From the NCBI GenBank assembly GCA_023701005.1, contig JAMPXW010000003.1, positions 9,148-73,147 of the forward strand: a DNA stretch of 64,000 bases. The letters are read 5' to 3'. A model generated the notes under the pieces. That model ran no database searches, was not told where the DNA came from, and saw nothing but the letters and a program-made list of their open reading frames with translations. Shown here in pieces: positions 5,437 to 56,468 of the stretch (position 1 is its first letter; each line of letters begins with the position of its first letter). The stretch comes from Burkholderiales bacterium. Lineage in GTDB: Bacteria > Patescibacteriota > Minisyncoccia > Phycocordibacterales > UBA9973. A program made the translations under genes and the position numbers.

Positions 5437-5509
5437 CACCTCACCCCCAATCTGCTATTAAGCAGATTTTCCCCTCTCCTTAATAAGGAGAGGGGTTAGG
5501 GGTGAGGTG
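5437..5509. other. nested three-stem palindromic element in pth/lepB divergent spacer
   Basis: outer stem cacctcacccc/ggggtgaggtg enclosing hairpins atctgct-atta-agcagat and cccctctcctt-aat-aaggagagggg. Confidence 0.45.
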
Positions 5510-5605
5510 CTCCTACCTCAACAAGCGAATACTAGGTGGGGTTATATTTTATTCCACATCACAAATATTCATTGTGTCAAGGCTTTTTTGTGCTAAAATA
5601 AACAA

Positions 5606-7550: not shown

Positions 7551-8084
7551 ATGAAAAAGATAGTCCAAAAAGAAGATAGGGTTTTGCACAAAGATGCAAA
7601 AGAAATACCAGTAAAAGACATCACCACCCCTAAAATACAAAAAATACTAAAAGAGATGTCTCAAGCTCTTAAAAATCAAAGTGACGGTGTCGCTCTCGCC
7701 GCTCCTCAAATAGGATATTCCCTTTCAATATTTGTCGTATCTGGAAAAATATTTCATAAAGATTTCGTAAGAGGTATGCAAGAATTTGAAAAAATTCCTG
7801 AAAATGAAGTCCCTAAAGATTTAGTTTTTATAAATCCAAAAATTTCAAAACTTTCCAGAGAAAAAGAATGGCTACCAGAAGGATGCCTTTCCGTGAGATG
7901 GCTTTATGGAAAAGCTTTGAGATCCAAAAAAGCCATGGTGACAGCTTATGACGAAAAAGGTAAGAAATTTCAAAGAGGTGCTTCAGGACTATTAGCTCAG
8001 ATTTTCCAACATGAGACAGACCATCTAAAAGGTGTATTATTTATCGACCACGCCAAAGATATAAGGGAAGAACTACCTCAATAA
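7551..8084 (+). CDS. def: peptide deformylase
   Basis: GVALAAPQIG, EGCLS, QHETDHLKG metal-binding motifs. Confidence 0.9.
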   Translation: MKKIVQKEDRVLHKDAKEIPVKDITTPKIQKILKEMSQALKNQSDGVALAAPQIGYSLSIFVVSGKIFHKDFVRGMQEFEKIPENEVPKDLVFINPKISKLSREKEWLPEGCLSVRWLYGKALRSKKAMVTAYDEKGKKFQRGASGLLAQIFQHETDHLKGVLFIDHAKDIREELPQ

Positions 8085-8091
8085 AATAACT

Positions 8092-8994
8092 ATGGTAAAT
8101 AGCAAAAAAAATCTTAATTTTATTTTTTGGGGAACACCAGATGTAGCAAAAGAAACATTAGATATTTTAAAAGAAAATGGCTATTTGCCTTCACTCATTG
8201 TGACTTCCACAGACAAACCACAAGGTAGAAAAATGATATTAACTCCCCCTCCTGTAAAAGTTTGGGCAATAGAAAACAATATTCCATATATTCAACCAGA
8301 AATTTTGTCTGGCAAAGATTTGCTTTTAGCGGGTGTCTCGCAGGCTGACGAGCCGAGAGGCAGCGCTCCGTTAGTAAACGGAAACAGCGACCCGATAAAA
8401 GTAGAATCCTTGCCAGATTTATCTATCGTGGTAGCTTATGGGAAAATTATTCCTGAAGAAATTTTAAATATGCCAAAATTTGGTTCTATAAATATACATT
8501 ATTCTCTGCTACCTAAGTATCGTGGAGCATCACCAGTAGAAAGTGCTATTTTAAATGGTGATAAAGACACAGGTGTCACAATACAAAAAATGGAATACAA
8601 AATGGATACTGGTCCCATTATTTCCACAGAAAAAACAGAAATATTGCCTACAGAAAAAGCTTCCGAATTAAGAAAAAGATTAATTAAAATAGGAGGAGAT
8701 CATTTAGTAAAAACTTTACCAAAGATTTTAGACAACACCATAACTCTAACTCCACAAAAGGATGAAGATGCTACTTATTGCAAAAAAATAAAAAAAGAAG
8801 ATGGCTTGATAGATCTTAATGATGATGCACAAAAAAACTATAATAAATTTAGAGCTTATTCTACATGGCCTCGTTCTTTCTTCTTTTTAGGAGAAAAAAG
8901 AATTATCATCACAGACGCAATACTAGAAAATAATCTTTTCACTATTAAAAAGATCATCCCCGAAAGTGGTAAAGAAACTAGTTACACTAAATAA
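8092..8994 (+). CDS. fmt: methionyl-tRNA formyltransferase
   Basis: formyl transferase N domain (HYSLLPKYRGASP) and C domain; contains 66-nt GC-rich in-frame insert. Confidence 0.88.
   Translation: MVNSKKNLNFIFWGTPDVAKETLDILKENGYLPSLIVTSTDKPQGRKMILTPPPVKVWAIENNIPYIQPEILSGKDLLLAGVSQADEPRGSAPLVNGNSDPIKVESLPDLSIVVAYGKIIPEEILNMPKFGSINIHYSLLPKYRGASPVESAILNGDKDTGVTIQKMEYKMDTGPIISTEKTEILPTEKASELRKRLIKIGGDHLVKTLPKILDNTITLTPQKDEDATYCKKIKKEDGLIDLNDDAQKNYNKFRAYSTWPRSFFFLGEKRIIITDAILENNLFTIKKIIPESGKETSYTK
8329..8394. repeat. GC-rich in-frame insert (family 2) in fmt linker; encodes AGVSQADEPRGSAPLVNGNSDP
   Basis: ~60% GC; shares 17-nt core ggctgacgagccgaga plus tcg with intergenic site 56065-56084; absent from E. 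coli-type Fmt linker between QP and VVVAYG. Confidence 0.55.
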
Positions 8995-9486: not shown

Positions 9487-9658
9487 TTTTTGTTCTCCTA
9501 ATTATTATTTATTGAGTTATTTCTGTCTCTAAAGAATTAGAAACAAAAATAACCCAACAAATCTAACTTAAGAAGTTAATGTCAAAAAACTATTATATTA
9601 CATATAATAGCACAGATATTAAAATCTGTAAATAGTAACGTAAATTAAATATTTTCTT

Positions 9659-10057
9659 TTAGTATTTAGAAGTAAAAGGATTTCGGTCAGAAAGTCCTTT
9701 TAGCATCTTTTTCACACTAGCTGCGCCTCTTCGAAACATCGTTTGTTTGCGATCTTTACTTCTTCTTATTTCTTCATAAAGCCTCTCTTTCACTTCATCG
9801 ACGGCTTGATAAATGTCTTCTTTGTCAGATCCATAATAAAACTTCTCGCCATTTATACTTATCAAACAATCTGCATGGAAAACATCTCCACTTTTATGAT
9901 GTTTAGTACTTTTTCCAACTTCAAAATTAGCTTTTATTTCTCCCCCACTCGTTTCAATATCAGAAAGTAATTTTTCTAAATTTGTCACTTTCTTTAAAAC
10001 ATATTCTGTTAAAGCTTCTGTAAGTTCAAAATTTTTACCTTGTAAATTTATATTCAT
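9659..10057 (-). CDS. hpf: ribosome hibernation promoting factor / ribosome-associated inhibitor (HPF/RaiA family)
   Basis: MNINLQGKNFELTEALTEYV N-terminus typical of sigma-54 modulation/HPF family plus C-terminal extension. Confidence 0.8.
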   Translation of the reverse strand: MNINLQGKNFELTEALTEYVLKKVTNLEKLLSDIETSGGEIKANFEVGKSTKHHKSGDVFHADCLISINGEKFYYGSDKEDIYQAVDEVKERLYEEIRRSKDRKQTMFRRGAASVKKMLKGLSDRNPFTSKY

Positions 10058-10096: not shown

Positions 10097-12052
10097 CTAA
10101 TATTTAATACTATGCACTAAGGCCTTGAGAACAATATCGAATTCTATCGTAGCGACTCCGATAACTTTATCTCCTCCGCCATAATAAATATACAGCAGTT
10201 TATCCCCGCCTTGACTCGACGAGGCAGGTTTTACTATCATACCACAAGGAAAAACGACATTATTCACAATTCCTATTTTTTCATATTCCTCTTTTGGTTC
10301 AAATATAGGGTCAGAGCTTCTAGCGAGGACAATAGCCGGATCTTTCAAATCTAATAACAAAAATCCTGTTCTATAAGTATTATGACTTTTAGAAACCCCA
10401 TGATATAAAAGAAGCCAGCCGTATTTTGTCTTAAGTGGTGGAGCAGAGATACCTACTTTTGCACTATCCCAAGTGTTTATTCGGGGTCCTGCTATTCTAA
10501 TACATTTTTTTACCATCTCATGTTTAAAATCTAAAGTAGAAAGATAATCTCCACAAATTTCATTACCGACACGATGAATTATAAAATATCCAAGTGGAAA
10601 CTTTTCAGGAAATATACAAGCATCCTTATCATCTATCCCCTGCGGAGTGATAAGAAAAGGTTTTTCCCAATTCCATTTATTTGAAATAAAATCTTGTTCA
10701 GTAATAGATGATATGGCTACTCTAGGTGGAGAGATACTATCATAAGCTGTATAACATAAATAAATATTCTTCCCTATTTTTGTAAGCCTAGGATCTTCAC
10801 AGCCAGAATTAGAATTATTTACTTTTTTATTTTCAAAATCTTCTCTAGGTACATAAACGGGCATTTTTAATCTCTTATCTATTTTTGTACCATTTTTTGT
10901 CATAGCATAGCCCATAGTAGAAGTATTATCATTAGACATTGCCCTATATAAAATATGTATCTTCTTGTCCAACAAGATAGTGGCTGGATTAAAAGTAGCT
11001 AAAGATTCCCAAGCATTTTCTTTTTTAGGTGAAATAATTGGATTATTTTTAAATCTTTTCAAACTAAATTTCTCTTTATATTTAAAATGTATACTTTGAA
11101 TTAAGTCTTCGAGATTAACTTTCGCCAAACATACAGTAGCATCTGCTGCTCCATAATATAAATTTAAGGTTTTTTTATCGATGATAGCTCCAGTAGGAAA
11201 AACAATATTAGGAACATAGCCAGAAAGTTCATAATGTTCTAAAGGTACAAGTATCGGGCCTTCAGTCTTGCCAACAATCTTTCTAGGATTCTTCAAATCC
11301 AAAATTACTGTCTCAATACCAAATATTTTATCTAAATTACTAGAAGATGCAAAATAGTTCTGAATATGAGAATAAATAAATAGCCAACCATCTTTCGTCT
11401 TTATTGGAGGAGCACCCACTTCTATGTGGTCAGAAGGAAAACGCTTCAAATCGATAGCATAATCATCTACATTCTTTTCCCACTTATTCCAAAATTCTAC
11501 AGACCATAAATCTTCTATCCTATCTAACATCGCGAAGACAGTTTTTGATGGTGGAGAATCCGTATGATAAGAAAATACAACTACAATTTTCCCATTTATT
11601 CTCTCTGGGAAAAGGGCCATAGCTTTGGCATTAAAAGGTGTCACCAAATGTCTCTCTTTTATTTTGTTTAAATCATCTGAAACAGCTACCGCAACCTTGA
11701 TACCCTCTCTTGAAAAAGGATATTTTGAAAGTGCAGTATAAAAAGTATAAAATTTGCCTTCAAAAAATGTAACTCTAGGGTCTTCACAGCCAAATTTTTC
11801 CCAATCTTCTTTTGGTGTGATAAATGGTTTTCTATTTTTAAAGTTAATACCATCTTTACTCTCAGCGATCCCTATCACAGAATTTTGTCTAGGATTTTGC
11901 AAGACATCAACTGCAGATATCGCTCTGTAAAGTCCATATATTTTACCCTTATATTTAATTGGACAAAGATTAAAAGTAGCAAATTCTTCCCAGTAATGAT
12001 CTTCCTTTGGTATTAAGATTGGATTGTGTTCTGATCTTTTTACAACAAACAT
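10097..12052 (-). CDS. tandem-duplicated GH130-like glycosidase/phosphorylase (two beta-propeller repeats)
   Basis: two copies of NPIL..W(E)..ATFN(P)...YRA..., ...YYG(A/G)(A/G)D pattern (GH130/DUF377-like); carries family-1 GC-rich insert near C-terminus. Confidence 0.55.
   Translation of the reverse strand: MFVVKRSEHNPILIPKEDHYWEEFATFNLCPIKYKGKIYGLYRAISAVDVLQNPRQNSVIGIAESKDGINFKNRKPFITPKEDWEKFGCEDPRVTFFEGKFYTFYTALSKYPFSREGIKVAVAVSDDLNKIKERHLVTPFNAKAMALFPERINGKIVVVFSYHTDSPPSKTVFAMLDRIEDLWSVEFWNKWEKNVDDYAIDLKRFPSDHIEVGAPPIKTKDGWLFIYSHIQNYFASSSNLDKIFGIETVILDLKNPRKIVGKTEGPILVPLEHYELSGYVPNIVFPTGAIIDKKTLNLYYGAADATVCLAKVNLEDLIQSIHFKYKEKFSLKRFKNNPIISPKKENAWESLATFNPATILLDKKIHILYRAMSNDNTSTMGYAMTKNGTKIDKRLKMPVYVPREDFENKKVNNSNSGCEDPRLTKIGKNIYLCYTAYDSISPPRVAISSITEQDFISNKWNWEKPFLITPQGIDDKDACIFPEKFPLGYFIIHRVGNEICGDYLSTLDFKHEMVKKCIRIAGPRINTWDSAKVGISAPPLKTKYGWLLLYHGVSKSHNTYRTGFLLLDLKDPAIVLARSSDPIFEPKEEYEKIGIVNNVVFPCGMIVKPASSSQGGDKLLYIYYGGGDKVIGVATIEFDIVLKALVHSIKY
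10203..10232. repeat. GC-rich mini-element (family 1) copy, in-frame in GH130-like gene; encodes PASSSQGG
   Basis: tccccgccttgactcgacgaggcaggtttt, 30/33 identity to gap copy; the N-terminal repeat of the same protein lacks it. Confidence 0.6.
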
Positions 12053-15510: not shown

Positions 15511-15981
15511 ATGTCTGTTATAATTTATTTTATGTATATAATATATGCTTTGTTGGGTGCTATAATGGCTAGCCTTGGCACAATATTTGCCAAATTAGGA
15601 TTAAAAGGAGTAGACGCAAATATGCTCACAGCCATCCGTGGCATAGTGATGGCTCTCATAGTTTCTATCGCTGCACTATCATTAGGTAAATTGAATATAA
15701 CAGCCCTTTCTTCCCTTTCTGCAAAACAATGGATCTTTGTCATTTTGTCTGGATTGGGAGGAGCTTTGTCTTGGATTTTCTTTTATCAAGCACTATCTGT
15801 TGGCCCCACTGTCGCTGTGACAGTGATCGACAAATTGTCTATCACATTTACCGCTATTTTGGCTGTTGCCGTTTTGTCTGAAGGAATAACTTTACAAGCA
15901 AGTATTGGTTTAGCTTTCGTTGTATTAGGGACACTTCTCGTAGCTATCCCTTGGGAAAAAATTCAAAAACTTTTTTCCTAA
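15511..15981 (+). CDS. small EamA/DMT-family membrane protein (4 TM)
   Basis: hydrophobic 156 aa, EamA-like half-transporter pattern. Confidence 0.45.
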   Translation: MSVIIYFMYIIYALLGAIMASLGTIFAKLGLKGVDANMLTAIRGIVMALIVSIAALSLGKLNITALSSLSAKQWIFVILSGLGGALSWIFFYQALSVGPTVAVTVIDKLSITFTAILAVAVLSEGITLQASIGLAFVVLGTLLVAIPWEKIQKLFS

Positions 15982-16020: not shown

Positions 16021-16177
16021 AAAAAAAAACATAAAGATAATTTTTAGAATGCCTTGCGCAGAAGCTTAGAAAATAAAAATAGTATTCTATTTATTATTTT
16101 CTTGAGCGGCGAGCAGTTCGCTAGCGAAGCTTCGCTAGATAGATTGCATTATAAAAATTGATCTTTATGTTTTTTGA
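16021..16177. repeat. MITE-like element: ~16-bp terminal inverted repeats flanking GC-rich palindromic core
   Basis: aaaaaacataaagat (16024-16038) vs atctttatgtttttt (16161-16175); core contains perfect palindromes ttcgctagcgaa and tagcgaagcttcgcta; lies between convergent genes. Confidence 0.45.
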
Positions 16178-16182
16178 TTCTC

Positions 16183-16857
16183 TTATTTAATTAAGAAACT
16201 CATTGTGGAGACTAAACGTATCTTTTTATATTCAGGTGATCCTGGATCCTTTTCTGAAATATCAAACACTCCTTGATTACCACGATGTAAGCCACCCAAG
16301 CTAGACCCTGTTTCCCCAGCTATCTTTTGAGCAGTATCTTTTGCATTCTTGAGAGCTTCAGCCAACATTTCTGGCTTTATTGTATTTATGTCTGAAAATT
16401 CAAAAGAAACAGAATTTTGATTCATTACAATTCCATTCTTTATTAATACTAAAGTATCTTTTGAAACTGATTTTATCAAATCAACTTTTTTAGTATAAAC
16501 AGAAAGTTGGTTTGTAGAATTGTATCTAAACAATGCATCTTTGTAGGTATCTTGATATATATTTACTGGTGCGACATTTATTTCAGATTCTTCAAAACCT
16601 TTCTCTTTCAAGAAAGCTTTGATAGTAGCTATGTTTTTACCAATATCAGCATATAAAGAATCAACATTATTTGATTTAACTTCAAAATTGATTGACCAAA
16701 TAGCTGTATCAGCTTTTACTATTCTCTCAGACAAACCTTTGACCTCTACATAAGAACCTTGTTTTGAAAAGTTTTGTGCAGCAAGGAAAAATATTGCTGA
16801 AAAAACCAAAACACCTAAACCTATAACCCACACATTGTAATTTTTTGTATTTTCCAT
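16183..16857 (-). CDS. SIMPL/DUF541-like secreted or membrane-anchored protein
   Basis: N-terminal TM then beta-rich region; weak family resemblance only. Confidence 0.35.
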   Translation of the reverse strand: MENTKNYNVWVIGLGVLVFSAIFFLAAQNFSKQGSYVEVKGLSERIVKADTAIWSINFEVKSNNVDSLYADIGKNIATIKAFLKEKGFEESEINVAPVNIYQDTYKDALFRYNSTNQLSVYTKKVDLIKSVSKDTLVLIKNGIVMNQNSVSFEFSDINTIKPEMLAEALKNAKDTAQKIAGETGSSLGGLHRGNQGVFDISEKDPGSPEYKKIRLVSTMSFLIK

Positions 16858-23540: not shown

Positions 23541-25853
23541 ATGTCTAAAGATCAAGATAATCCAAATCGTGTAATTACAGAACAAGATGCTCGCATCGTA
23601 ATAAACAGAAAACTCCAAGAAGCTGGATGGTCTTTAGAAGGTCCGGAAAAAAATGTATTGACCGAGCAACACTCAGATGCAGGATTTATGGACTATCTCC
23701 TCTTAGATCGAAATGGTAGAAACCTAGCCCTAGTTGAAGCAAAAAAGGATTCCATAGATCCATACACTGCAAAGAACCAAGCGCGAGGATACGCAGAAGC
23801 AAATAACTGCAGATATGTATTCCTAGCGAACTCTGAACAATTATATTTCTGGGACTTAGAAGATGGTGATGCTACTCCCATCGAAAGGTTTATATCTCCA
23901 CAAGACTTACAACGCAGACATGATCTCAAGCTGTCACGCAAACCATTATCTTCAATTCCTCACAATATGGAGATCTGTGACAGACCATATCAAGTTAGCG
24001 CGTCAGACACCATTGCAAAACAATTCGACGAAGGTAAAAGATCTTTCCTTCTTGAGATGGCCACAGGTACAGGCAAAACAAGATTGTCTGCAGGGATAAT
24101 AGACCGCTTCTTAAAAGCACATCAAGCTGAAAGAGTTTTGTTTATTGTGGACCGAATAGAACTAGCTAAACAAACACTAGATGCCTTTCAAATAGCATTC
24201 AAAGACAACTATAGAGCTGTACGTTATAAACCCGGCCAGCATGCAGTATTCGGTGGTGCAAATATCGTAGTAGCGACAATACAAAGCTTAAACATCCACT
24301 TCAAAAAAGACTTCACCCCGGGTTATTTTGACTTAGTTATCAACGATGAAGCACATCGATCCATATACGGCGAATTACCACGCCAAGTTGTTGAATACTT
24401 CCAAGCGGTGCGTATAGGACTAACTGCTACTCCAAACGACTTTTTGAAAAATATAGACATAGAAAAACTACAAGATAGTAATCCCCTTAAACTTGAATAC
24501 AGGTTTGCTCGTGATACATACAAACACTTCGGCTGTGATATGAGTACGCCAACATTTAGATACACCATCCAAGATGGAGTAAAGGATGGCTTCCTCGTTG
24601 CTCCACGTATTGCTCGTATGGTATCAGTAATCACCAAAGAAGCTGTTTCAGAAGATGGATGGAATATAGAAATAGATGGCGAAGACTATACCTATCGTAT
24701 TTCTCAGTTAGAAAAAAAGGTTCTCATCCCAAAAAGAAACGAATTGATTTGTTTTCAATTTTTACAAAATGCATTAAAAACACCAGATGGAGCTATTGGT
24801 AAATCTGTATTCTTTGCAGTATCACAAAACCACGCCGTGGCTCTCGCTCGAGAATTAAACAGACTAACTCCTGAACACAATGGTAAATTCGCGGAGGTTA
24901 TAACTTCTCGTGTGCAAGGAGCTTCTGACCTGGCTAAGCAATTCAGAAAAGATGAAAACTTCTATCCTCGTATAGCGGTGAGTGTGGACATGCTAACTAC
25001 GGGTTTTGATTGTCCTGAAATTCTAAACATAGTACTCGCTCGTCCGATTGCTTCACCAACCACATACATTCAGATCAAAGGACGTGGTACTAGAAAGTAT
25101 ACCTTCCCAGACGGCACACCCAAAAAAGAATTCTTGGTGCATGACTTCTGTGAAGTGGTGAAGTATTTTGAAGAAGAATATGACTTCGAAGCACCGTTAC
25201 CTGTGACTGGTACTGGTGGCGGTGGCACAACACCACCCCCACCTCCTCCACCACCTGAAGAAGTAAAAACCTACGAAGGCACTGATGAAATAGTACTAAC
25301 AGAAATGATTCAAGTCGGTCCTGAGGGTGAAAAAGTAGACCGTCTTGTTTATATAACAAAATGGGAAAAGACTATCAGACAAATTATCAACGAAAACCCA
25401 ATCCTAGCTAAACAAGTAGAAGAAGGTTCTGAAGAAGAAATATCAGAATTCTTGCGTACAAATGTCTTCGACAAACCGACAGAATACTTCAACGAGAGAA
25501 ACCTTTCCCGTGCATATAGAGTGTTTGGGGATTTGATTGATTTTGTGAAAGCAGGTCTTGGTATGCAAAAACTTCCGACCCGAGAAGAGCAATTACTCGA
25601 ATTGGTAGAAAGCATCAGAACTGATCACGACCTAAACCTAGAACAAGTAAGGTTGTTAAAGATACTTGTAAGGCAATTGAGCCAAAGCCCTAAGCTCTTG
25701 GCCAAGTTTGAGGCCGGAGATTACTCTTTCCTCGACGAATCGCCTTTCTCTCAGTTTGGTGGTACAAGAATGTATATAGCTGGCTTTGATTCGAAAATTA
25801 GAGTAGTGTTTGATACCGTACGCTCAAGTCCGGCGTTAACAATAGTTGAATAA
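23541..25853 (+). CDS. hsdR: Type I restriction enzyme R subunit (short form, with poly-Pro linker)
   Basis: HSDR_N nuclease-like N-terminus (DYLLLDRNG..LVEAKK), helicase motifs EMATGTGKT, DEAH, LTATP, QIKGRGTR; GGGGTTPPPPPPPP linker at ~25200-25260; noticeably higher GC than surroundings. Confidence 0.85.
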   Translation: MSKDQDNPNRVITEQDARIVINRKLQEAGWSLEGPEKNVLTEQHSDAGFMDYLLLDRNGRNLALVEAKKDSIDPYTAKNQARGYAEANNCRYVFLANSEQLYFWDLEDGDATPIERFISPQDLQRRHDLKLSRKPLSSIPHNMEICDRPYQVSASDTIAKQFDEGKRSFLLEMATGTGKTRLSAGIIDRFLKAHQAERVLFIVDRIELAKQTLDAFQIAFKDNYRAVRYKPGQHAVFGGANIVVATIQSLNIHFKKDFTPGYFDLVINDEAHRSIYGELPRQVVEYFQAVRIGLTATPNDFLKNIDIEKLQDSNPLKLEYRFARDTYKHFGCDMSTPTFRYTIQDGVKDGFLVAPRIARMVSVITKEAVSEDGWNIEIDGEDYTYRISQLEKKVLIPKRNELICFQFLQNALKTPDGAIGKSVFFAVSQNHAVALARELNRLTPEHNGKFAEVITSRVQGASDLAKQFRKDENFYPRIAVSVDMLTTGFDCPEILNIVLARPIASPTTYIQIKGRGTRKYTFPDGTPKKEFLVHDFCEVVKYFEEEYDFEAPLPVTGTGGGGTTPPPPPPPPEEVKTYEGTDEIVLTEMIQVGPEGEKVDRLVYITKWEKTIRQIINENPILAKQVEEGSEEEISEFLRTNVFDKPTEYFNERNLSRAYRVFGDLIDFVKAGLGMQKLPTREEQLLELVESIRTDHDLNLEQVRLLKILVRQLSQSPKLLAKFEAGDYSFLDESPFSQFGGTRMYIAGFDSKIRVVFDTVRSSPALTIVE

Positions 25854-30102: not shown

Positions 30103-30342
30103 AAACCAAGGAAAATGGTAAAATGAATTTACCATAATTTATGGTGACAAAACCTAAACCAGAGCAATCTGGCATGGTTCAAATATCCCACGCGAATAGA
30201 AACGGCCACATAAGCCGACATTCATTCGCGTGGGTCCACAATCGAAAGGTTGTGGGATAGTTCCGAAAGGAGCTGTCGTCGTGTCTTGTGTGGCCATTTG
30301 TGTTAAACAAGCCGACTATTATCAACTAAAACCCACGCGAAA
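30103..30342 (+). other. GC-rich highly structured leader/ncRNA candidate with mutually exclusive pairings
   Basis: cccacgcgaa at 30187 and again at 30329 just before the ATG, complementary ttcgcgtggg at ~30231; hairpins atggtaaa/tttaccat/atggt, ccaga-gcaa-tctgg, cccacaa-tcgaaagg-ttgtggg. Confidence 0.45.
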
Positions 30343-33326: not shown

Positions 33327-35036
33327 ATGGAAAAAGAACAACAAAAATTAAACAAATACTTTATTTATTGCAGAAAGTCTACAGACAGCGAAGATAGACA
33401 AATACAATCATTATCAGATCAAATTAGGATATTACAAGAAATGGCAGAAAAGAAAGGTTTAATGATAGTAGAAACCTTACAAGAAGCTAAATCTGCTAAA
33501 GCACCCGGTAGGCCAGTATTCACGAAAATGATTGAGAGAATTAGTAAAGGTGAAGCCAATGGAATAATCACATGGAAATTAAATCGATTAGCGCGTAATC
33601 CTATAGATGGTGGAACTATCAGCTGGCTACTCCAACAAGGAGTGATTAAAGAAATCCTCACCCCGGAAAAAAGCCACTATCCAAATGATAATGCATTAAT
33701 CATGTCAGTAGAATTAGGTATCGCAAATCAATTCATTAGAGACTTAAGTAGTGATGCTAAGCGTGGTATAAAAACAAGAGCAACACAAAAAGGTTACCCA
33801 AATGGAGTTGCTCCTATAGGATACTTAAATGATCTTGTGAAAGCCAAAGGAGATCGTGGCTGGAAAGTAGACGAAGAAAGATTTCCAATAATAAAACAAA
33901 TACTAAAAATGTTTGCCACGGGTAAATACTCAGTGAGACAAATGACTAGTATTGCTAACGAAGAAATGGGATTGAGAACCTTTATAAGGAAAAAACAAGG
34001 TGGAAAGAAAATCGTTGTATCTTACATGGATGTGATATTAAAAAATCCAGTATATGCCGGCTTCTTCTTTCTCAATACAGATAATAGTAGGCATGAAGTA
34101 AACAAAGAAATTCCAAGAATGATCTCTGAAGAAACATATTGGAAAATACAAAAAATTCTTGGAAACAGAGGACGCCCTAGGCCTCACAAAAATATAAAAG
34201 CTTTCGCTTATACAGGTCTCACCAAATGCGGTGGCTGTGGTGGCTCTGTGACGGCTGAAGAAAAATACCAATTAATATGTTCCAGTTGTAAGCATAAATT
34301 CGCCTATGCAAGTAAAAACGAATGCCCCAAATGCAAAACAAAGATAAAAGACATGGAAGATCCTACTTACTTACACTATACCTACTATCACTGCACAAAA
34401 AAGAAAAGAGAACTAAAATGCAAAGAAAGATCAGTGGTGGATACAAAAATCGATGAGACGCTGGCAGACTACTATAAAAAAAACTTAAAAATATCAGCCG
34501 ACTTGTCTAAGTGGTGCATAGAAAATCTACGAGTAATTGAGAAAGAAGAAAAGCAAAATGATTACGAGATAAAAGCGTCTTTACAGAAAACCCTGACATC
34601 AAAAGAAAAAGAGCTTTCAGAACTAGCACTGATGCGCGCCAGAGGGCTTTTGGACGATGAAAGCTTCATTACAGCACAAAATACAATAAAGGAAGATATT
34701 AGCGCCCTTAAGCGAAAATTGAGCGAATTTGAGCATCTTGATCCAGAAAAAGCAGAAAGGATTTACCAAGCATTCGACCTATCGCAAGGCATAGACGAAA
34801 TTATCAGAAATGGCACGCCTGAAGAGAAAAAATCAGTATTATTGGAAATTGGTTCGAACCTAACTCTAAAAGACAAAACAATCAATGTTTATAACAGCGA
34901 ATTGTATTCTGCAATAATAAATGGACTACATTTAGCAAAGTCTGAAATTGAGTGGTTCGAACCTGAAAATTATCAAGCAGAACAAGAACAAAACGCCTCT
35001 TTCGAGGCGCTTCGTTCAACCATGCTCCGGGGGTAG
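33327..35036 (+). CDS. large serine recombinase (integrase type: resolvase catalytic domain + recombinase domain + zinc ribbon + coiled coil)
   Basis: YCRKSTDSEDRQ..SLSDQ catalytic Ser region, LNRLAR, CGGCGGS...CSSCKH...CPKCKT zinc ribbon; start set at MEKEQQ (ORF track start 33219 overlaps a conserved hairpin); stop overlaps tRNA-Asn 3' end. Confidence 0.8.
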   Translation: MEKEQQKLNKYFIYCRKSTDSEDRQIQSLSDQIRILQEMAEKKGLMIVETLQEAKSAKAPGRPVFTKMIERISKGEANGIITWKLNRLARNPIDGGTISWLLQQGVIKEILTPEKSHYPNDNALIMSVELGIANQFIRDLSSDAKRGIKTRATQKGYPNGVAPIGYLNDLVKAKGDRGWKVDEERFPIIKQILKMFATGKYSVRQMTSIANEEMGLRTFIRKKQGGKKIVVSYMDVILKNPVYAGFFFLNTDNSRHEVNKEIPRMISEETYWKIQKILGNRGRPRPHKNIKAFAYTGLTKCGGCGGSVTAEEKYQLICSSCKHKFAYASKNECPKCKTKIKDMEDPTYLHYTYYHCTKKKRELKCKERSVVDTKIDETLADYYKKNLKISADLSKWCIENLRVIEKEEKQNDYEIKASLQKTLTSKEKELSELALMRARGLLDDESFITAQNTIKEDISALKRKLSEFEHLDPEKAERIYQAFDLSQGIDEIIRNGTPEEKKSVLLEIGSNLTLKDKTINVYNSELYSAIINGLHLAKSEIEWFEPENYQAEQEQNASFEALRSTMLRG

Positions 35037-35062
35037 GGATCGAACCTACGACCAATCGCTTA

Positions 35063-35631
35063 CACTTTATCTCCTATTACTAGAAGTGTGGACTATATCA
35101 TCTCCATGTTCATAAAATTTATGAATTTAGAAGCAAGGCGCTTCGCGCTCTAACATAAATTAGAGAGCTACTCCATAAATGGATAGTCTCTACACCTTCC
35201 TCAATTTAAAATTGAGGCTTGGCTCGGGATTACCCCATAAGGGCTTCCCCGAATTCACCTTGTTTTTCAACCTAAGTTTTCTTAGGAAGCTGCGTAATAC
35301 CGTCATGTATTTCCATATGACAATTTGCACACAAGAGAACACATTTATCAATTTCTTTTTTGATACGTTCCCATGACCTAGTTAACCCCCTAGAAGAAAG
35401 ATCAAAATCTTTTTCTTTTGGATTTAAGTGATGAAAACTTAATGATCTCTGGCATTTATTATAGCCACACACAATACACTTACCGCCTTTATAGTCTCTA
35501 GCCATTTCACGAAGCTTTTTTCTTCTTCTTGTAACAGCCATTACCATATATTCTCTACGGTCGGCATATGTTCGTTTTTCTACTCGTTTCTTTTTGGTAT
35601 ACACAAGTAGATTATACCACAAACATCCGAC
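35063..35631 (-). mobile_element. group I intron within tRNA anticodon loop
   Basis: 5' exon ends in U, intron ends in G; P7 pairing agacta...tagtc and P8-like hairpin tccatttatgga downstream of ORF. Confidence 0.65.
35272..35622 (-). CDS. HNH homing endonuclease encoded in the tRNA intron
   Basis: CIVCGYNKCQRSLSFHHLNPKEKD...LLCANCHMEIH HNH motif; non-ATG (TTG) start in track. Confidence 0.7.
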   Translation of the reverse strand: MWYNLLVYTKKKRVEKRTYADRREYMVMAVTRRRKKLREMARDYKGGKCIVCGYNKCQRSLSFHHLNPKEKDFDLSSRGLTRSWERIKKEIDKCVLLCANCHMEIHDGITQLPKKT

Positions 35632-35832
35632 ACAGGCGACCGCTCTACCGCTGAGCTACCCCGGAATATTTTATTTTCAATTCTTCTTTTAAATACCATA
35701 ATTTCCACCAAACTATCTACCTATAAGTAGATAAGCCCCGGAATATTATTCAATTAAAAGAACTTTTTATATCTTAACAGAAAATAACTAAAAAACAAGA
35801 TGGCTTTTCGTTTTAGTGTATAATTAAATACA

Positions 35833-42104: not shown

Positions 42105-42435
42105 AAGTCTGGTAAGATAATACCGGTCCTGTATTGAATAGTTGCGCTCCGGCCTCGGCTGGAGTGAGGAAAGTCCGAACACATAGTCTCGGCTTAGGCC
42201 TTAGACAAGCGTAGTGGGTAACGCCCATCGGGAGCAATCCCAGAGTTGAGAACAGTGACGAACCGATTTAGTTCGGGTGAAACGGCAAAATACTTACGTG
42301 TGTGCAAGATCGTGTTCTGCGAAGCTTCATGCGAAGCAGAAAGAATCGCTTGAGCCCGAGCGTAAGCGAGGGCCTAGACAAATAACTATTGCCTTTATTG
42401 GTACAGAATTCGGCTTATAGATACAAGGCTCACAT
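42105..42435 (+). ncRNA. rnpB: RNase P RNA, bacterial type A
   Basis: GAGGAAAGUCCGAAC (P4 5' strand), GGGUAACGCC, GGGUGAAACGG, GCUUGAGCC, ACAGAAUUCGGCUUA (P4 3' strand) in canonical order; ends approximate (+/-20 nt). Confidence 0.85.
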
Positions 42436-54717: not shown

Positions 54718-55962
54718 TTATCTCCAAGCTGGTTTCCTCGACAAAAGAGTGTTGTACACTGCTTTCAAAAGCCAAAAAGGTCCTATAACACTAAAAATAA
54801 CAAGGAAATATATTATATTAAAAGAAAATTTCCATTTTCCATCTATCATTTTCTTTCCTAAGATTATAGAAAATATAATCATGACAAACAACAACATTGA
54901 TATAAAAGACAGTGACTGAGTATTTATAAAAAAGGGATCTAGAAAGTCAGAGTTAAAATTAAAATTAAAACCTATGGTCTTGTATTCTATAAACTTAGAT
55001 AATAAGAAATTACCAAGATTATATATCATCTTTCCAAAAAGATAACTAGCAGCAAAAACAGAAAGCACGCCAGACGGAACTGTAAAAACAGAAAAATTAC
55101 CATACTTTTTTCTAAAAAGAATATTTCTGTAGTCAATAGTATTATTTATAAAACCATAAATCCAGCGAAGCCTTTGTTTATAAAGTTTTATTACTGTAGG
55201 TGGTGTACCAGTATAAACATAAGCATCATTACATTGTTCTATTTTGTAATGATTCTTCTGCATTCTGTAAGCTATCTCCATATCTTCTGTATTGTGAGCA
55301 TGACGATATGGCCCCAAGTCATCAAATACTTTCTTTCTAAATATGGTCAAAGGCCCAGGGGTCACATGTATTCCACCCACCAATCCAAGCATTTTCTTAA
55401 TATAAACAGACATCTCATATTCTATTTCTTGAGCATGTTGAATCATATTTTTTGAATTTACTGCAACAATAGAAGGAGCTACAGCCATAATGCTCGAATC
55501 TTTTTCAAAATAACTCATTATTCTTATTAATGACTCTTTGTCTGCCACCGAATCAGCATCAAGGCAACCGACAAAATCTGTCTCTATGTGTTCAAGCCCT
55601 AAATTTAAAGCAGTGTGTTTACCTCCATTTTCTTTATGAAAAATCTTTACATTAGAAAATTCAGAAAATTTTTGAATAGCCTCCCATGTCTTATCAGTCG
55701 AACCATCATCAATCAAAAATATTTTTAATTTATCTTTCGGATAATTTAAACTAAGAAGTGATTGCACTGTCTTGTCGATAGTCTTTTCTTCATTCCAAGA
55801 AGGTACTATCACTGTGACTTTTGGATAGTCTTTTAATTCGATAGGACCATTCCTAACAACTATTTTCTTTCTATTTTCAAAGAAAGTAATCAAAAAAAAT
55901 ACCTGCACGTATACAGACAAAAACGTCAAACTATAGAAGACTATTTCAGAAAATGAAGTCAT
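54718..55962 (-). CDS. processive family-2 glycosyltransferase (PgaC/IcaA/cellulose-synthase-like) with C-terminal TM helices
   Basis: VTVIVPSWNEE..., DDGSTD, DADS, QRLRW (QxxRW) motifs. Confidence 0.75.
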   Translation of the reverse strand: MTSFSEIVFYSLTFLSVYVQVFFLITFFENRKKIVVRNGPIELKDYPKVTVIVPSWNEEKTIDKTVQSLLSLNYPKDKLKIFLIDDGSTDKTWEAIQKFSEFSNVKIFHKENGGKHTALNLGLEHIETDFVGCLDADSVADKESLIRIMSYFEKDSSIMAVAPSIVAVNSKNMIQHAQEIEYEMSVYIKKMLGLVGGIHVTPGPLTIFRKKVFDDLGPYRHAHNTEDMEIAYRMQKNHYKIEQCNDAYVYTGTPPTVIKLYKQRLRWIYGFINNTIDYRNILFRKKYGNFSVFTVPSGVLSVFAASYLFGKMIYNLGNFLLSKFIEYKTIGFNFNFNSDFLDPFFINTQSLSFISMLLFVMIIFSIILGKKMIDGKWKFSFNIIYFLVIFSVIGPFWLLKAVYNTLLSRKPAWR

Positions 55963-56064
55963 ATTTATCTATATAATATAACATTTTTTAAGAAAAAAGC
56001 AACAAAAAAATACAAATTAGTGCTTTCTAATAAAAAAACCTAAAAAGAAAGTTTTTAAGGGGTT

Positions 56065-56084
56065 TCGAGGCTGACGAGCCGAGA
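56065..56084. repeat. intergenic copy of GC-rich family-2 core (tcgaggctgacgagccgaga)
   Basis: 20-nt match to fmt insert core at 8341-8360. Confidence 0.5.
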
Positions 56085-56165
56085 ATTTCAGGATTTTTTA
56101 AGCTTCAAAAAATCCGTACCGACAAAAACTTTGCTTTTTAGGTTTTTAAATTATTATATTTAAAA

Positions 56166-56468
56166 CTACATAGTCCCCTCTGTCTTTGGAGCTTCTGTTG
56201 CTCCACATGGAGTACATACTCCGTCGGCAGAACATTTTTGACACTTACAATCAAAGATAGCCATAACAGCAGCTACGCCTACCAATAGATAGACAACAGC
56301 CTCAAGCACTGGGATAGAACTTAATAACATATTAACAATATTGTATCCACCTTCTACTCCCAAAAGCATACCTAAGCCGACTAAACCCCAATTTACACCA
56401 CCAATGATCACTAATACTTTTACGATCATAGCTAGCGTGCAAACACCCTTTTTACAACAATTAATCAT
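56166..56468 (-). CDS. DUF378-family small membrane protein with Cys-rich C-terminal tail
   Basis: IIGGVNWGLVGL core of DUF378; tail CKCQKCSADGVCTPCG. Confidence 0.5.
   Translation of the reverse strand: MINCCKKGVCTLAMIVKVLVIIGGVNWGLVGLGMLLGVEGGYNIVNMLLSSIPVLEAVVYLLVGVAAVMAIFDCKCQKCSADGVCTPCGATEAPKTEGTM

Follow-up and report, generated by a model that had tools for sequence, protein, structure and literature searches.

An in-frame insert in fmt of a Paceibacteria-type genome is probably a copy of a dispersed, self-folding palindromic repeat

The 64,000-nt stretch of contig JAMPXW010000003.1 analysed here (the window) contains a methionyl-tRNA formyltransferase gene, fmt, with a GC-rich in-frame insert which belongs to a family of structured repeats dispersed in coding and non-coding DNA. 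The window is AT-rich (33 % GC overall) and comes from a Paceibacteria/Nomurabacteria-type genome of the Candidate Phyla Radiation (CPR). The Fmt protein encoded in it is 100 % identical to one protein of a metagenome-assembled genome, and its nearest named relatives are from Nomurabacteria and Paceibacterota. The identical protein carries the NCBI label 'Burkholderiales bacterium', which is probably a binning or taxonomy error, since all close relatives are Nomurabacteria or Paceibacterota. Homologues of the window Fmt contain the domains PF00551 and PF02911. The features of the fmt locus and the copies of the element found in the window are collected in Table 1.

Table 1 Features of the fmt locus and the three copies of the element in the window
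Feature	Position	Strand	Description
def	7551-8084		Directly upstream of fmt
fmt (methionyl-tRNA formyltransferase)	8092-8994	+	Hosts the element; open reading frame of 300 codons, matches solved Fmt structures
Outer P1 of fmt copy, 5' arm	8308-8329	+	TCTGGCAAAGATTTGCTTTTAG; locus-specific, built of fmt codons; pairs with 8395-8417 in the predicted fold
Three-way-junction core of fmt copy (66-nt insert)	8330-8394	+	Inner P1: 8330-8334 paired with 8390-8394
P2 of fmt core	8335-8361	+	GUCUC-GCA-GGCU-GACG-AGCC-GA-GAGGC
P3 of fmt core	8364-8389	+	CGC-UCCGUU-AGUA-AACGGA-AACA-GCG
Outer P1 of fmt copy, 3' arm	8395-8417	+	ATAAAAGTAGAATCCTTGCCAGA; its translation, ...IKVESLPD, contains the PD conserved in the PDLxxVVAYG motif
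Peptide spanning the fmt insert			...LLLAGVSQADEPR...
Third copy	16024-16175	+	Intergenic, between convergent open reading frames 15511-15981 (+) and 16183-16857 (-)
Intergenic S2 copy	56028-56153	+	P1 arms 56028-56056 and 56125-56153; core 56057-56124; P2 UUC-GA-GGCU-GACG-AGCC-GA-GAA; P3 GGAUUUUUU-AAGCUUC-AAAAAAUCC

A first-pass annotation, made from the letters of the window, had described an in-frame insert at 8329-8394, within the 300-aa open reading frame (ORF) of fmt, adding about 22 residues to the protein. The sequence is as described, and the extra residues were confirmed by comparison with solved Fmt structures, in which only 8 residues stand opposite residues 77-106 of the window Fmt (~22 extra), and with the shorter linkers of relatives. 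When the linker is taken as the stretch between 'QP' and 'VVAYG', it is 129 nt long in the window compared to 39-63 nt in relatives lacking the insert. GC content reaches its maximum at the insert (0.66 in a 50-nt window, compared to 0.33 for the whole window). The insert had been placed between the two domains of Fmt, but it actually falls within the N-terminal catalytic domain, where the 'IQP' and 'VVAYG' strands flank it. An AlphaFold2 model of the window Fmt (mean predicted local distance difference test score, pLDDT, 81.8) was confident except for residues 78-101 (pLDDT <50). The insert at 8330-8394 encodes residues about 80-101 within this low-scoring stretch and is predicted to form a disordered loop.

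The core of the insert had been reported to recur, over 20 nt, in a non-coding spacer near position 56,000. The recurrence is real, but the exact match is 16 nt long: the 16-mer GGCTGACGAGCCGAGA occurs exactly twice in the window, at 8343-8358 and 56069-56084, both on the plus strand. By chance 0.06 matches were expected, and two matches were seen in none of 100 shuffles. The second occurrence lies, as stated, in non-coding DNA, in a copy of the element that is antisense to both of its neighbours, a DUF378 gene (56166-56468, -) on one side and a GT2 glycosyltransferase gene (54718-55962, -) on the other. This copy belongs to an intergenic subfamily, here called S2. The fmt copy folds at -31.1 kcal/mol (z = -2.76) and scores 67.1 bits with the covariance model (E = 3e-15); the corresponding values for the S2 copy are -39.9 kcal/mol (z = -5.2) and 58.2 bits. 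A third, diverged copy at 16024-16175 had been overlooked. It has 22-nt inverted-repeat arms, an AT-rich hairpin of ~45 nt replaces the tip of P2, and it folds at -50.9 kcal/mol (z = -6.35). It aligns with related copies at L003:19200 and L068:1041 (loci from related genomes and metagenome contigs are given L numbers) and with fmt copies, and the same variant, with an AT-rich hairpin for the P2 tip, was found at L003:19200, L107:1087, L102:4913 and L131:3856. That a GC-rich coding linker and an intergenic hairpin unrelated to it are alike by coincidence, with no family behind them, would agree with the exact 16-mer being found just twice in 64 kb. It is hardly credible in view of the expected number of matches, the homology spanning the whole three-way junction, and the hundreds of further copies described below.

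At both the fmt and S2 window sites the repeated unit is a core of 66-80 nt folding as a three-way junction. In P2 a basal stem is followed by an internal loop (tandem G·A in S2, GCA/GA in the fmt copy) and then by 2-5 bp of GC stem ending in a GACG loop, while the hairpin P3 has a stem that varies (CCGUU/AACGG, GUGCC/GGCAC or AUUUUCC/GGAAAAU). The core always sits at the tip of an inverted repeat of 15-35 bp (P1), the sequence of which is specific to the locus. In an alignment of 24 sequences with a hand-drawn structure, 88.8 % of cells were paired and double changes were seen in 20 of the 26 pairs, while slid controls gave 34-50 %. With 126 model-aligned copies the figures were 91.1 % of cells paired, covariation in 26 of 26 pairs and 44-64 % in slid controls; this larger alignment was fitted to the covariance model and is thus biased towards the structure. 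The elements had been called GC-rich, which holds for subtype A (57-70 % GC), while the other subtypes have 35-50 % GC.

Several copies are elaborated. GC-rich palindromes were nested at one fixed point of P2, just after CCGA, in a def copy (L055:9551-9668) and in an S2 copy (L140:5125-5223); these nested palindromes are perfect (CCCGCCCGCC...GGCGGGCGGG and CCTGCCTGCCGGCAGGCAGG), and the coding one is in frame. In L124 and L184 there is an extra hairpin between P2 and P3. In a subgroup of copies (L082, L089, L084, L096, L109, L110, L114, L125, L143, L175, L198, L068:1041 and L003:19200) the outer stem is longer, conserved and interrupted by an internal loop, (GAATTACG)AAACTCGTYGARGC ... GCCGAGWAAGAGTTT(CGTAATTC), from which it seems that in some lineages the three-way junction is part of a larger conserved structure.

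The distribution of the element was assessed by taking the fmt DNA and its surroundings from 80 related GTDB genomes and searching it with a covariance model, R1, built from fmt inserts. In these 1.37 Mb R1 found 53 solid copies, 34 of them in fmt and 3 in rsmE. The def gene carries the element at seven loci, six of which were matched by R1 (L005, L024, L044, L055, L064 and L072); the seventh, L036, is a variant visible only in the Def alignment. The peptide encoded by the def element is RGVSQA(G/D)EPRGSA...DSDP, and the core in L064 def is nearly identical to the window fmt core. A 32-nt string from P3 and the junction of S2 was found exactly in at least 120 metagenome contigs and had no match in viral contigs; a phage origin was rejected on this ground. 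Within 660 kb of those metagenome contigs R1 found 126 copies, of which 25 were not S2. The latter included subtypes B and D in intergenic DNA and coding copies in genes for a class-I aminoacyl-tRNA synthetase (aaRS), uvrD and mnmA (all antisense) and in tsaD (sense). In all, seven housekeeping genes (fmt, def, rsmE, tsaD, mnmA, uvrD and the class-I aaRS gene) host the element, in both orientations and in several reading frames, in addition to many intergenic sites. The suggestion in the first-pass annotation of a dispersed family in both coding and non-coding DNA was thus borne out far beyond the original two sites. Single genomes hold several copies: three were found in the 64-kb window, as expected of a dispersed multi-copy repeat, and the L077/L089 genome has at least five copies of three subtypes, namely a reversed subtype A in fmt, two subtype D copies (differing by 1 nt) and S2 copies. 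The extra copies in the metagenome contigs numbered about 26 per 660 kb.

In coding copies the nucleic-acid fold is conserved and the peptide is not. Among 120 aligned Fmt homologues most have extra residues at the insert site and about eight lack an insert, and the inserted peptides are unrelated to each other (SQADEPRGSA, SIAQADEPSIA, GRSDGDGQRKFSAENFRGEQN, SLSVPTGTALPLGSSACETPAKS, GRSDGDGQRKFSAENF and, from the reverse strand, SLSVPTGTALPLGSSACETP). The long fmt linkers are nevertheless clearly homologous as DNA and fall into subtypes A-D. In L003 and L077 subtype A is reverse-complemented at the same place in fmt, again in frame. Among carriers of type D the element is 93 % identical, compared to 72 % for the flanking Fmt protein and 36 % for four-fold third codon positions, which are saturated. 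All 58 parsed fmt linkers (39-132 nt) keep the frame, have a length divisible by 3 and contain no stop codon, and the other coding copies also lie in unbroken ORFs. From these frames we infer that the coding copies are translated through. Orthologues all sharing one linker with normal codon usage, which the first-pass annotation had named as an observation that would refute its interpretation, were not encountered in the sense intended, because the inserts of many orthologues are conserved nucleotides read as unrelated peptides, sometimes in the reverse orientation.

Surface loops for tRNA binding are known in Fmt enzymes (loop 1 of E. coli Fmt). The 22 residues could in principle be an adaptive, lineage-specific loop of this kind, recognising tRNA or a partner, with the match at 56069 being incidental, and the insert does occupy one fixed place of Fmt in many relatives. 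We regard this as very unlikely: the encoded peptides are unrelated, the same DNA recurs both between genes and within six other genes, disorder is predicted for the loop, and many relatives lack it or have only remnants.

GC-rich 'byp' inserts that are bypassed in translation occur in some yeast mitochondria, and CPR bacteria are known for unusual insertions in rRNA genes. A GC-rich structured insert at the tip of a long helix in an AT-rich genome could in the same manner be removed or skipped during expression, either as a mini-intron cut from the P1 hairpin or as a translational-bypass element. An excised or bypassed element would, however, not need the constraint on frame and stop codons, and every coding copy examined is a multiple of 3 and stop-free, throughout both orientations, linkers of 39-132 nt, nested insertions and deletion derivatives. 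Removing the whole hairpin would also leave a linker shorter than that of any insert-free relative, and neither window site matches a ribozyme or intron family. Removal or skipping is therefore highly improbable. More generally, Rfam 15 gave no relevant match up to E = 10 at the fmt and S2 window sites and none up to E = 0.1 in six further loci, and apart from RNase P RNA, LOOT RNA, a group I intron and tRNAs at other places, a gathering-threshold Rfam scan of the window returned nothing. Hammerhead and other ribozymes were rejected; CUGACGAG resembles the hammerhead core, but no stem II/GAAA arrangement fits and Rfam gave nothing. A K-turn or K-loop reading of P2 was set aside as well; S2 copies have a symmetric 2x2 tandem G·A loop and no 3-nt bulge.

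The fmt copy is old, patchily distributed and decaying by in-frame deletion, and the element is dispensable in fmt. In-frame deletion derivatives were found in L016, which retains only the P1 arms, in L039 and L074, which retain the 5' arm and the first bases of the core, and in L012 and L064, which retain the 3' half. Carriers and non-carriers are interleaved in the Fmt tree, as are subtypes, basal linkers and unrelated palindromes; this is a single-protein neighbour-joining tree and weakly resolved. As this tree is star-like it was used qualitatively only, and dating of gains and losses on it was dropped.

The same loops of fmt and def also host other palindromes. One family (AGGTCGGACCT...AGGTCCGACCT, peptide RSDL...KRSDL) is present in both def (~9588-9698) and fmt (10190-10300) of L012 and also in def of L030, and TTCCCC...GGGGAA palindromes were found in these loops as well. 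The palindrome CCTCCCCCTTAATAAGGGGGAGG lies in frame in the fmt linker of L045 and L072, and a related peptide, PLLNKERG, is found in def of L037. At 5470-5542 of the window, between genes, a GC-rich hairpin, TCCCCTCTCCTTAATAAGGAGAGGGG, with two more hairpins after it (z = -2.8), is very similar to CCTCCCCCTTAATAAGGGGGAGG; together these look like a second palindrome family using the same permissive loops. Because several families share the loops, permissive loops would seem to act as a survival filter rather than as targets of sequence-specific insertion. In L084 a low-complexity insert (PSTSSGQGPSTTAMAGQVGSG) of the GC-rich-palindrome kind is found in EF-P, beside an S2 copy, again indicating that these proteomes commonly contain such inserts.

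The outer P1 arms were locus-specific in 119 S2 copies and in all coding copies, even within one genome, and arms that vary from genome to genome at orthologous def and fmt sites have stayed complementary. How such stems may arise is illustrated by rsmE, for which filled and empty sites could be compared. The filled sites have 60 extra nucleotides. The original coding sequence ((Y/F)SCILE(N/D)xS), present in empty sites too, forms the 3' arm of P1, and the inner 5' arm is a new inverted copy of the 3' arm sequence. In the outermost pairs the direction is the opposite, the original 'GGE' codons of the 5' side having been copied in reverse over host codons of the 3' side. The palindrome thus appears to be made, and to grow, in place. 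Replication template switching acts in this manner, and hairpins are documented to be created and maintained by it (PMC8794818). A pre-existing hairpin as the landing site of coding copies was rejected, the empty rsmE sites having no such hairpin. The segment between the outer arms is inverted in fmt of L003 and L077, and both orientations occur at orthologous intergenic sites (L015 plus, L064 and L008 minus; L013 plus, L040 minus). Inversions between the outer arms explain the two orientations found in fmt and at these sites.

At intergenic sites a pre-existing hairpin as landing site is possible, because relatives carry other hairpins at the orthologous site of the window S2 copy. Different elements are found there at L201:1310-1474, L204/L205:1338-1501 and L206:1348-1501, with inverted repeats of ~25-30 bp and other structured cores, while L202 and L203 have a plain terminator hairpin. 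Next to S2, the window itself has retained the 3' arm of the L201-type hairpin (minus-strand reading, about 56000-56025). Hairpin modules have therefore been exchanged at such sites.

The two strands of the element are not equivalent. In the P1 arms of 117 S2 copies there were 87 G·T pairs to 14 A·C mismatches, and in coding copies 53 to 10. Divided by context, the ratios in S2 arms were 10:2 for co-oriented and 16:3 for opposed copies, 26:4 between convergent genes and 13:1 between divergent genes, and the plus strand folded better in 12 of 13 further copies. Since G·T far exceeds A·C on it in every gene context, this strand is taken to be the selected, folded one. The relevant folded form could be single-stranded DNA bound by a putative enzyme, or a transcript. 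Six back-to-back inverted doublets were present among the copies.

A structured module, RNA or single-stranded DNA, used by the host and maintained by selection would account for a good part of this pattern. As a protein-binding or nucleating cap, it could sit on long AT-rich hairpins with a role as terminators, transcript stabilisers, processing sites or attenuators, and coding copies, such as those in the def-fmt operon, would then be intragenic regulatory hairpins. The S2 core is invariant across genomes in which synonymous sites are saturated, S2 is kept at orthologous sites (the ftsZ 3' end, pth-lepB and others) with compensatory changes in P1 and P2, and G·U wobbles far exceed A·C mismatches. 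Homogenisation of the palindrome should erase the mismatches of the tandem G·A loop and of the GACG loop, yet these are conserved, and the tandem G·A mismatches are never 'repaired'. Other hairpins or a plain terminator at the S2 orthologous site in relatives also make it seem that the position needs a hairpin. Within-genome concerted evolution as the sole cause of core conservation was rejected; homogenisation is at most partial, because different P2 variants coexist in one genome.

On the other hand, the link between transcription and the orientation of the element is weak. Counted against the nearest gene 3' end, 52 copies run in the opposite and 31 in the same direction, and 27, lying between divergent genes or otherwise placed, have no 3' end nearby; between co-directional genes the numbers are 33 opposite and 15 same. 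The wobble-bearing strand is usually not the one transcribed by read-through from the neighbours. T-runs after P1 were not enriched (3.07 compared to 2.93 T in the first 8 nt), no strand-specific promoter signal was seen around the element, and a consensus terminator scan found nothing at the window site. The U-tract and the placement and orientation after gene 3' ends that characterise terminator-like repeats of the SPRITE type were likewise lacking. With the orientation, T-run and promoter tests negative or weak, a terminator or a small-RNA gene was rejected. Further, coding copies occur in both orientations in unrelated genes and have been lost or partly deleted in many fmt lineages, and Rfam holds no match. 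Use by the host is therefore judged somewhat unlikely.

We consider it most probable, at about 0.6, that a dispersed family of self-folding palindromic repeats of Paceibacteria, comparable to the Rickettsia palindromic elements (RPEs), has given rise to the fmt insert, an in-frame copy which is translated through and the flanks of which have been turned into a palindrome. Such an element would spread or persist at the level of DNA. Coding copies would survive only when an in-frame, stop-free insertion hits a permissive surface loop, and a surviving copy would be translated as a disordered loop of no use to Fmt. The long inverted repeat would be made in place by template switching, with one flank reverse-copied to the other side, and the arms would be kept complementary thereafter. 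A selfish or neutral DNA repeat was ranked first because the coding copies take any orientation and frame and decay freely in fmt.

Several observations weigh against this explanation. No mobilising gene was found and no transposase recurred among 231 ORFs flanking the copies, which are ordinary housekeeping genes (ftsZ, pth, lepB, trxB, grpE, efp, map, miaA and similar). Nor was there a RAYT, HUH or integrase gene among these 231 ORFs, the search having been confined to the flanks and whole genomes not searched. Target-site duplications, for which the first-pass annotation had proposed to look, were not detected, direct repeats in the flanks being no longer than in shuffled pairings. The hallmarks of classical transposons are missing because the outer arms are not shared between copies, and a classical transposon was rejected for want of target-site duplications, shared terminal repeats and a recurrent transposase. 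Movement of the element is inferred and not observed, because no recent insertion polymorphism was caught, and translation of the insert is judged solely from reading-frame statistics. The persistence of S2 at orthologous intergenic sites, with P3 and the junctions invariant and P1 and P2 changing by compensation in place, is more what would be expected of a functional element under purifying selection than of selfish DNA in decay.

It is possible, though doubtful, that the family represents a new class of CPR element, defined by the three-way junction, one folded strand under selection and a self-built inverted repeat without terminal repeats or target duplications. If this were true, the class would reside long-term both between genes and inside essential proteins, and the implication would be that either an enzyme mobilising or maintaining it in a single-strand-specific manner or a multi-copy functional RNA of Patescibacteria has so far escaped description. 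The invariant core, the tandem G·A motif and the wobble bias of one strand point to a putative binding partner, be it an enzyme or a host factor. No earlier description of such elements in CPR bacteria was found in an incomplete coverage of the literature, and novelty is accordingly provisional.

Palindromes inside proteins have been best documented in Rickettsia, and the present family extends the phenomenon to the CPR. The hosts are core enzymes of translation and RNA modification, such as Fmt, Def, RsmE, TsaD, MnmA and an aaRS. Inserts of this kind explain odd low-complexity loops and length variation in CPR proteins and are thus of concern for annotation, alignment, phylogeny and structure prediction. 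They also provide a natural system in which hairpins appear to be both created and enlarged on the spot within coding DNA, and direct material for the template-switching model of stem origin.

Some other features of the window deserve mention. A GC-rich stretch at 880-960, in the GAPDH ORF (479-1561, -), adds ~12 residues (KPASPTSQGGDL) to a conserved segment and is presumably the 'family 1' which the fmt insert had been said to resemble. This resemblance was not upheld: with filters off, the covariance model found nothing in the GC island at 822-974, and the region folded no better than shuffled sequences (z = -0.4 and -1.1). As there is neither a match to the element model nor significant structure, the stretch may be a different kind of insert or a remnant. 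Another GC-rich run, at 25179-25282 in ORF 23541-25853, encodes a Gly/Pro-rich segment (GGTGGCGGTGGC...CCACCTCCTCCACCACC) and is unrelated to the element. The group I intron lies at 35070-35359 (-; Rfam, 65.5 bits) and is overlapped by ORF 35272-35622 (-). Its flanks (34983-35066 and 35612-35673) are GC-rich and resemble tRNA halves; ARAGORN found no tRNA around the intron when run on 34800-35800. LOOT RNA (71.3 bits) and bacterial RNase P RNA (109.9 bits) are found at 30151-30277 and 42126-42433, respectively, and the latter is shortened in several helices compared to the model.

The element shares traits with several known systems. [quoted passage not shown] MITEs, however, have shared terminal inverted repeats and target-site duplications, and the CPR family fails on both counts; no parent insertion sequence was seen among the genes flanking its copies. 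Repetitive extragenic palindromes (REPs) are simple extragenic hairpins of 20-40 nt with a terminal GTAG or CGTC tag. In contrast, the CPR unit is a three-way junction with GACG in a loop, and copies are found inside genes. With the REP/REPIN-RAYT systems, the ends of IS200/IS605 and integron attC sites it has in common that structure counts more than sequence, that one strand is folded, as the excess of G·T over A·C suggests for the CPR family, and that mismatches are conserved (see also PMC3733652). Back-to-back doublets and the long life of copies at their sites are further likenesses to these systems.

GC-rich hairpin modules are also found in AT-rich mitochondrial genomes, as the GC clusters of yeast, the RHE of sponges and the palindromic repeats of algae (see also PMC2800124, PMC4524435). 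They too invade compact AT-rich genomes, coding regions included. They differ in being organellar and mostly simple hairpins, and are not reported to have locus-specific long stems. Hairpins formed by template switching, in which reverse copying of one flank gives a perfect stem and the arms change jointly, agree well with what was seen in rsmE (PMC8794818). Template switching is, however, a mutational mechanism and not a family of elements, and the origin of the conserved core is not explained by it. Two properties of the CPR family call for explanation, namely that each locus has a stem apparently built on the spot and that one strand shows a wobble bias whatever the orientation of the genes.

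RPEs are short palindromic repeats which occur between genes and in frame in unrelated genes, adding a peptide that is compatible with the fold of the protein (PMC10969869). The present element is likewise short, dispersed and hairpin-forming, and is found both in intergenic DNA and in frame in housekeeping genes of a reduced, AT-rich genome. RPEs are ~100-150 bp long and have a conserved peptide, whereas the CPR core is a three-way junction of 66-80 nt and its peptides vary with frame and orientation. The CPR family also belongs to another phylum, has a locus-specific long stem and keeps its core conserved at orthologous sites. We know of no sequence relationship between the two, which were compared by description. 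With its varying peptides and different host phylum, the CPR family appears to be an analogue of the RPEs rather than a member, and of the systems considered here they are the ones it most closely resembles in behaviour.

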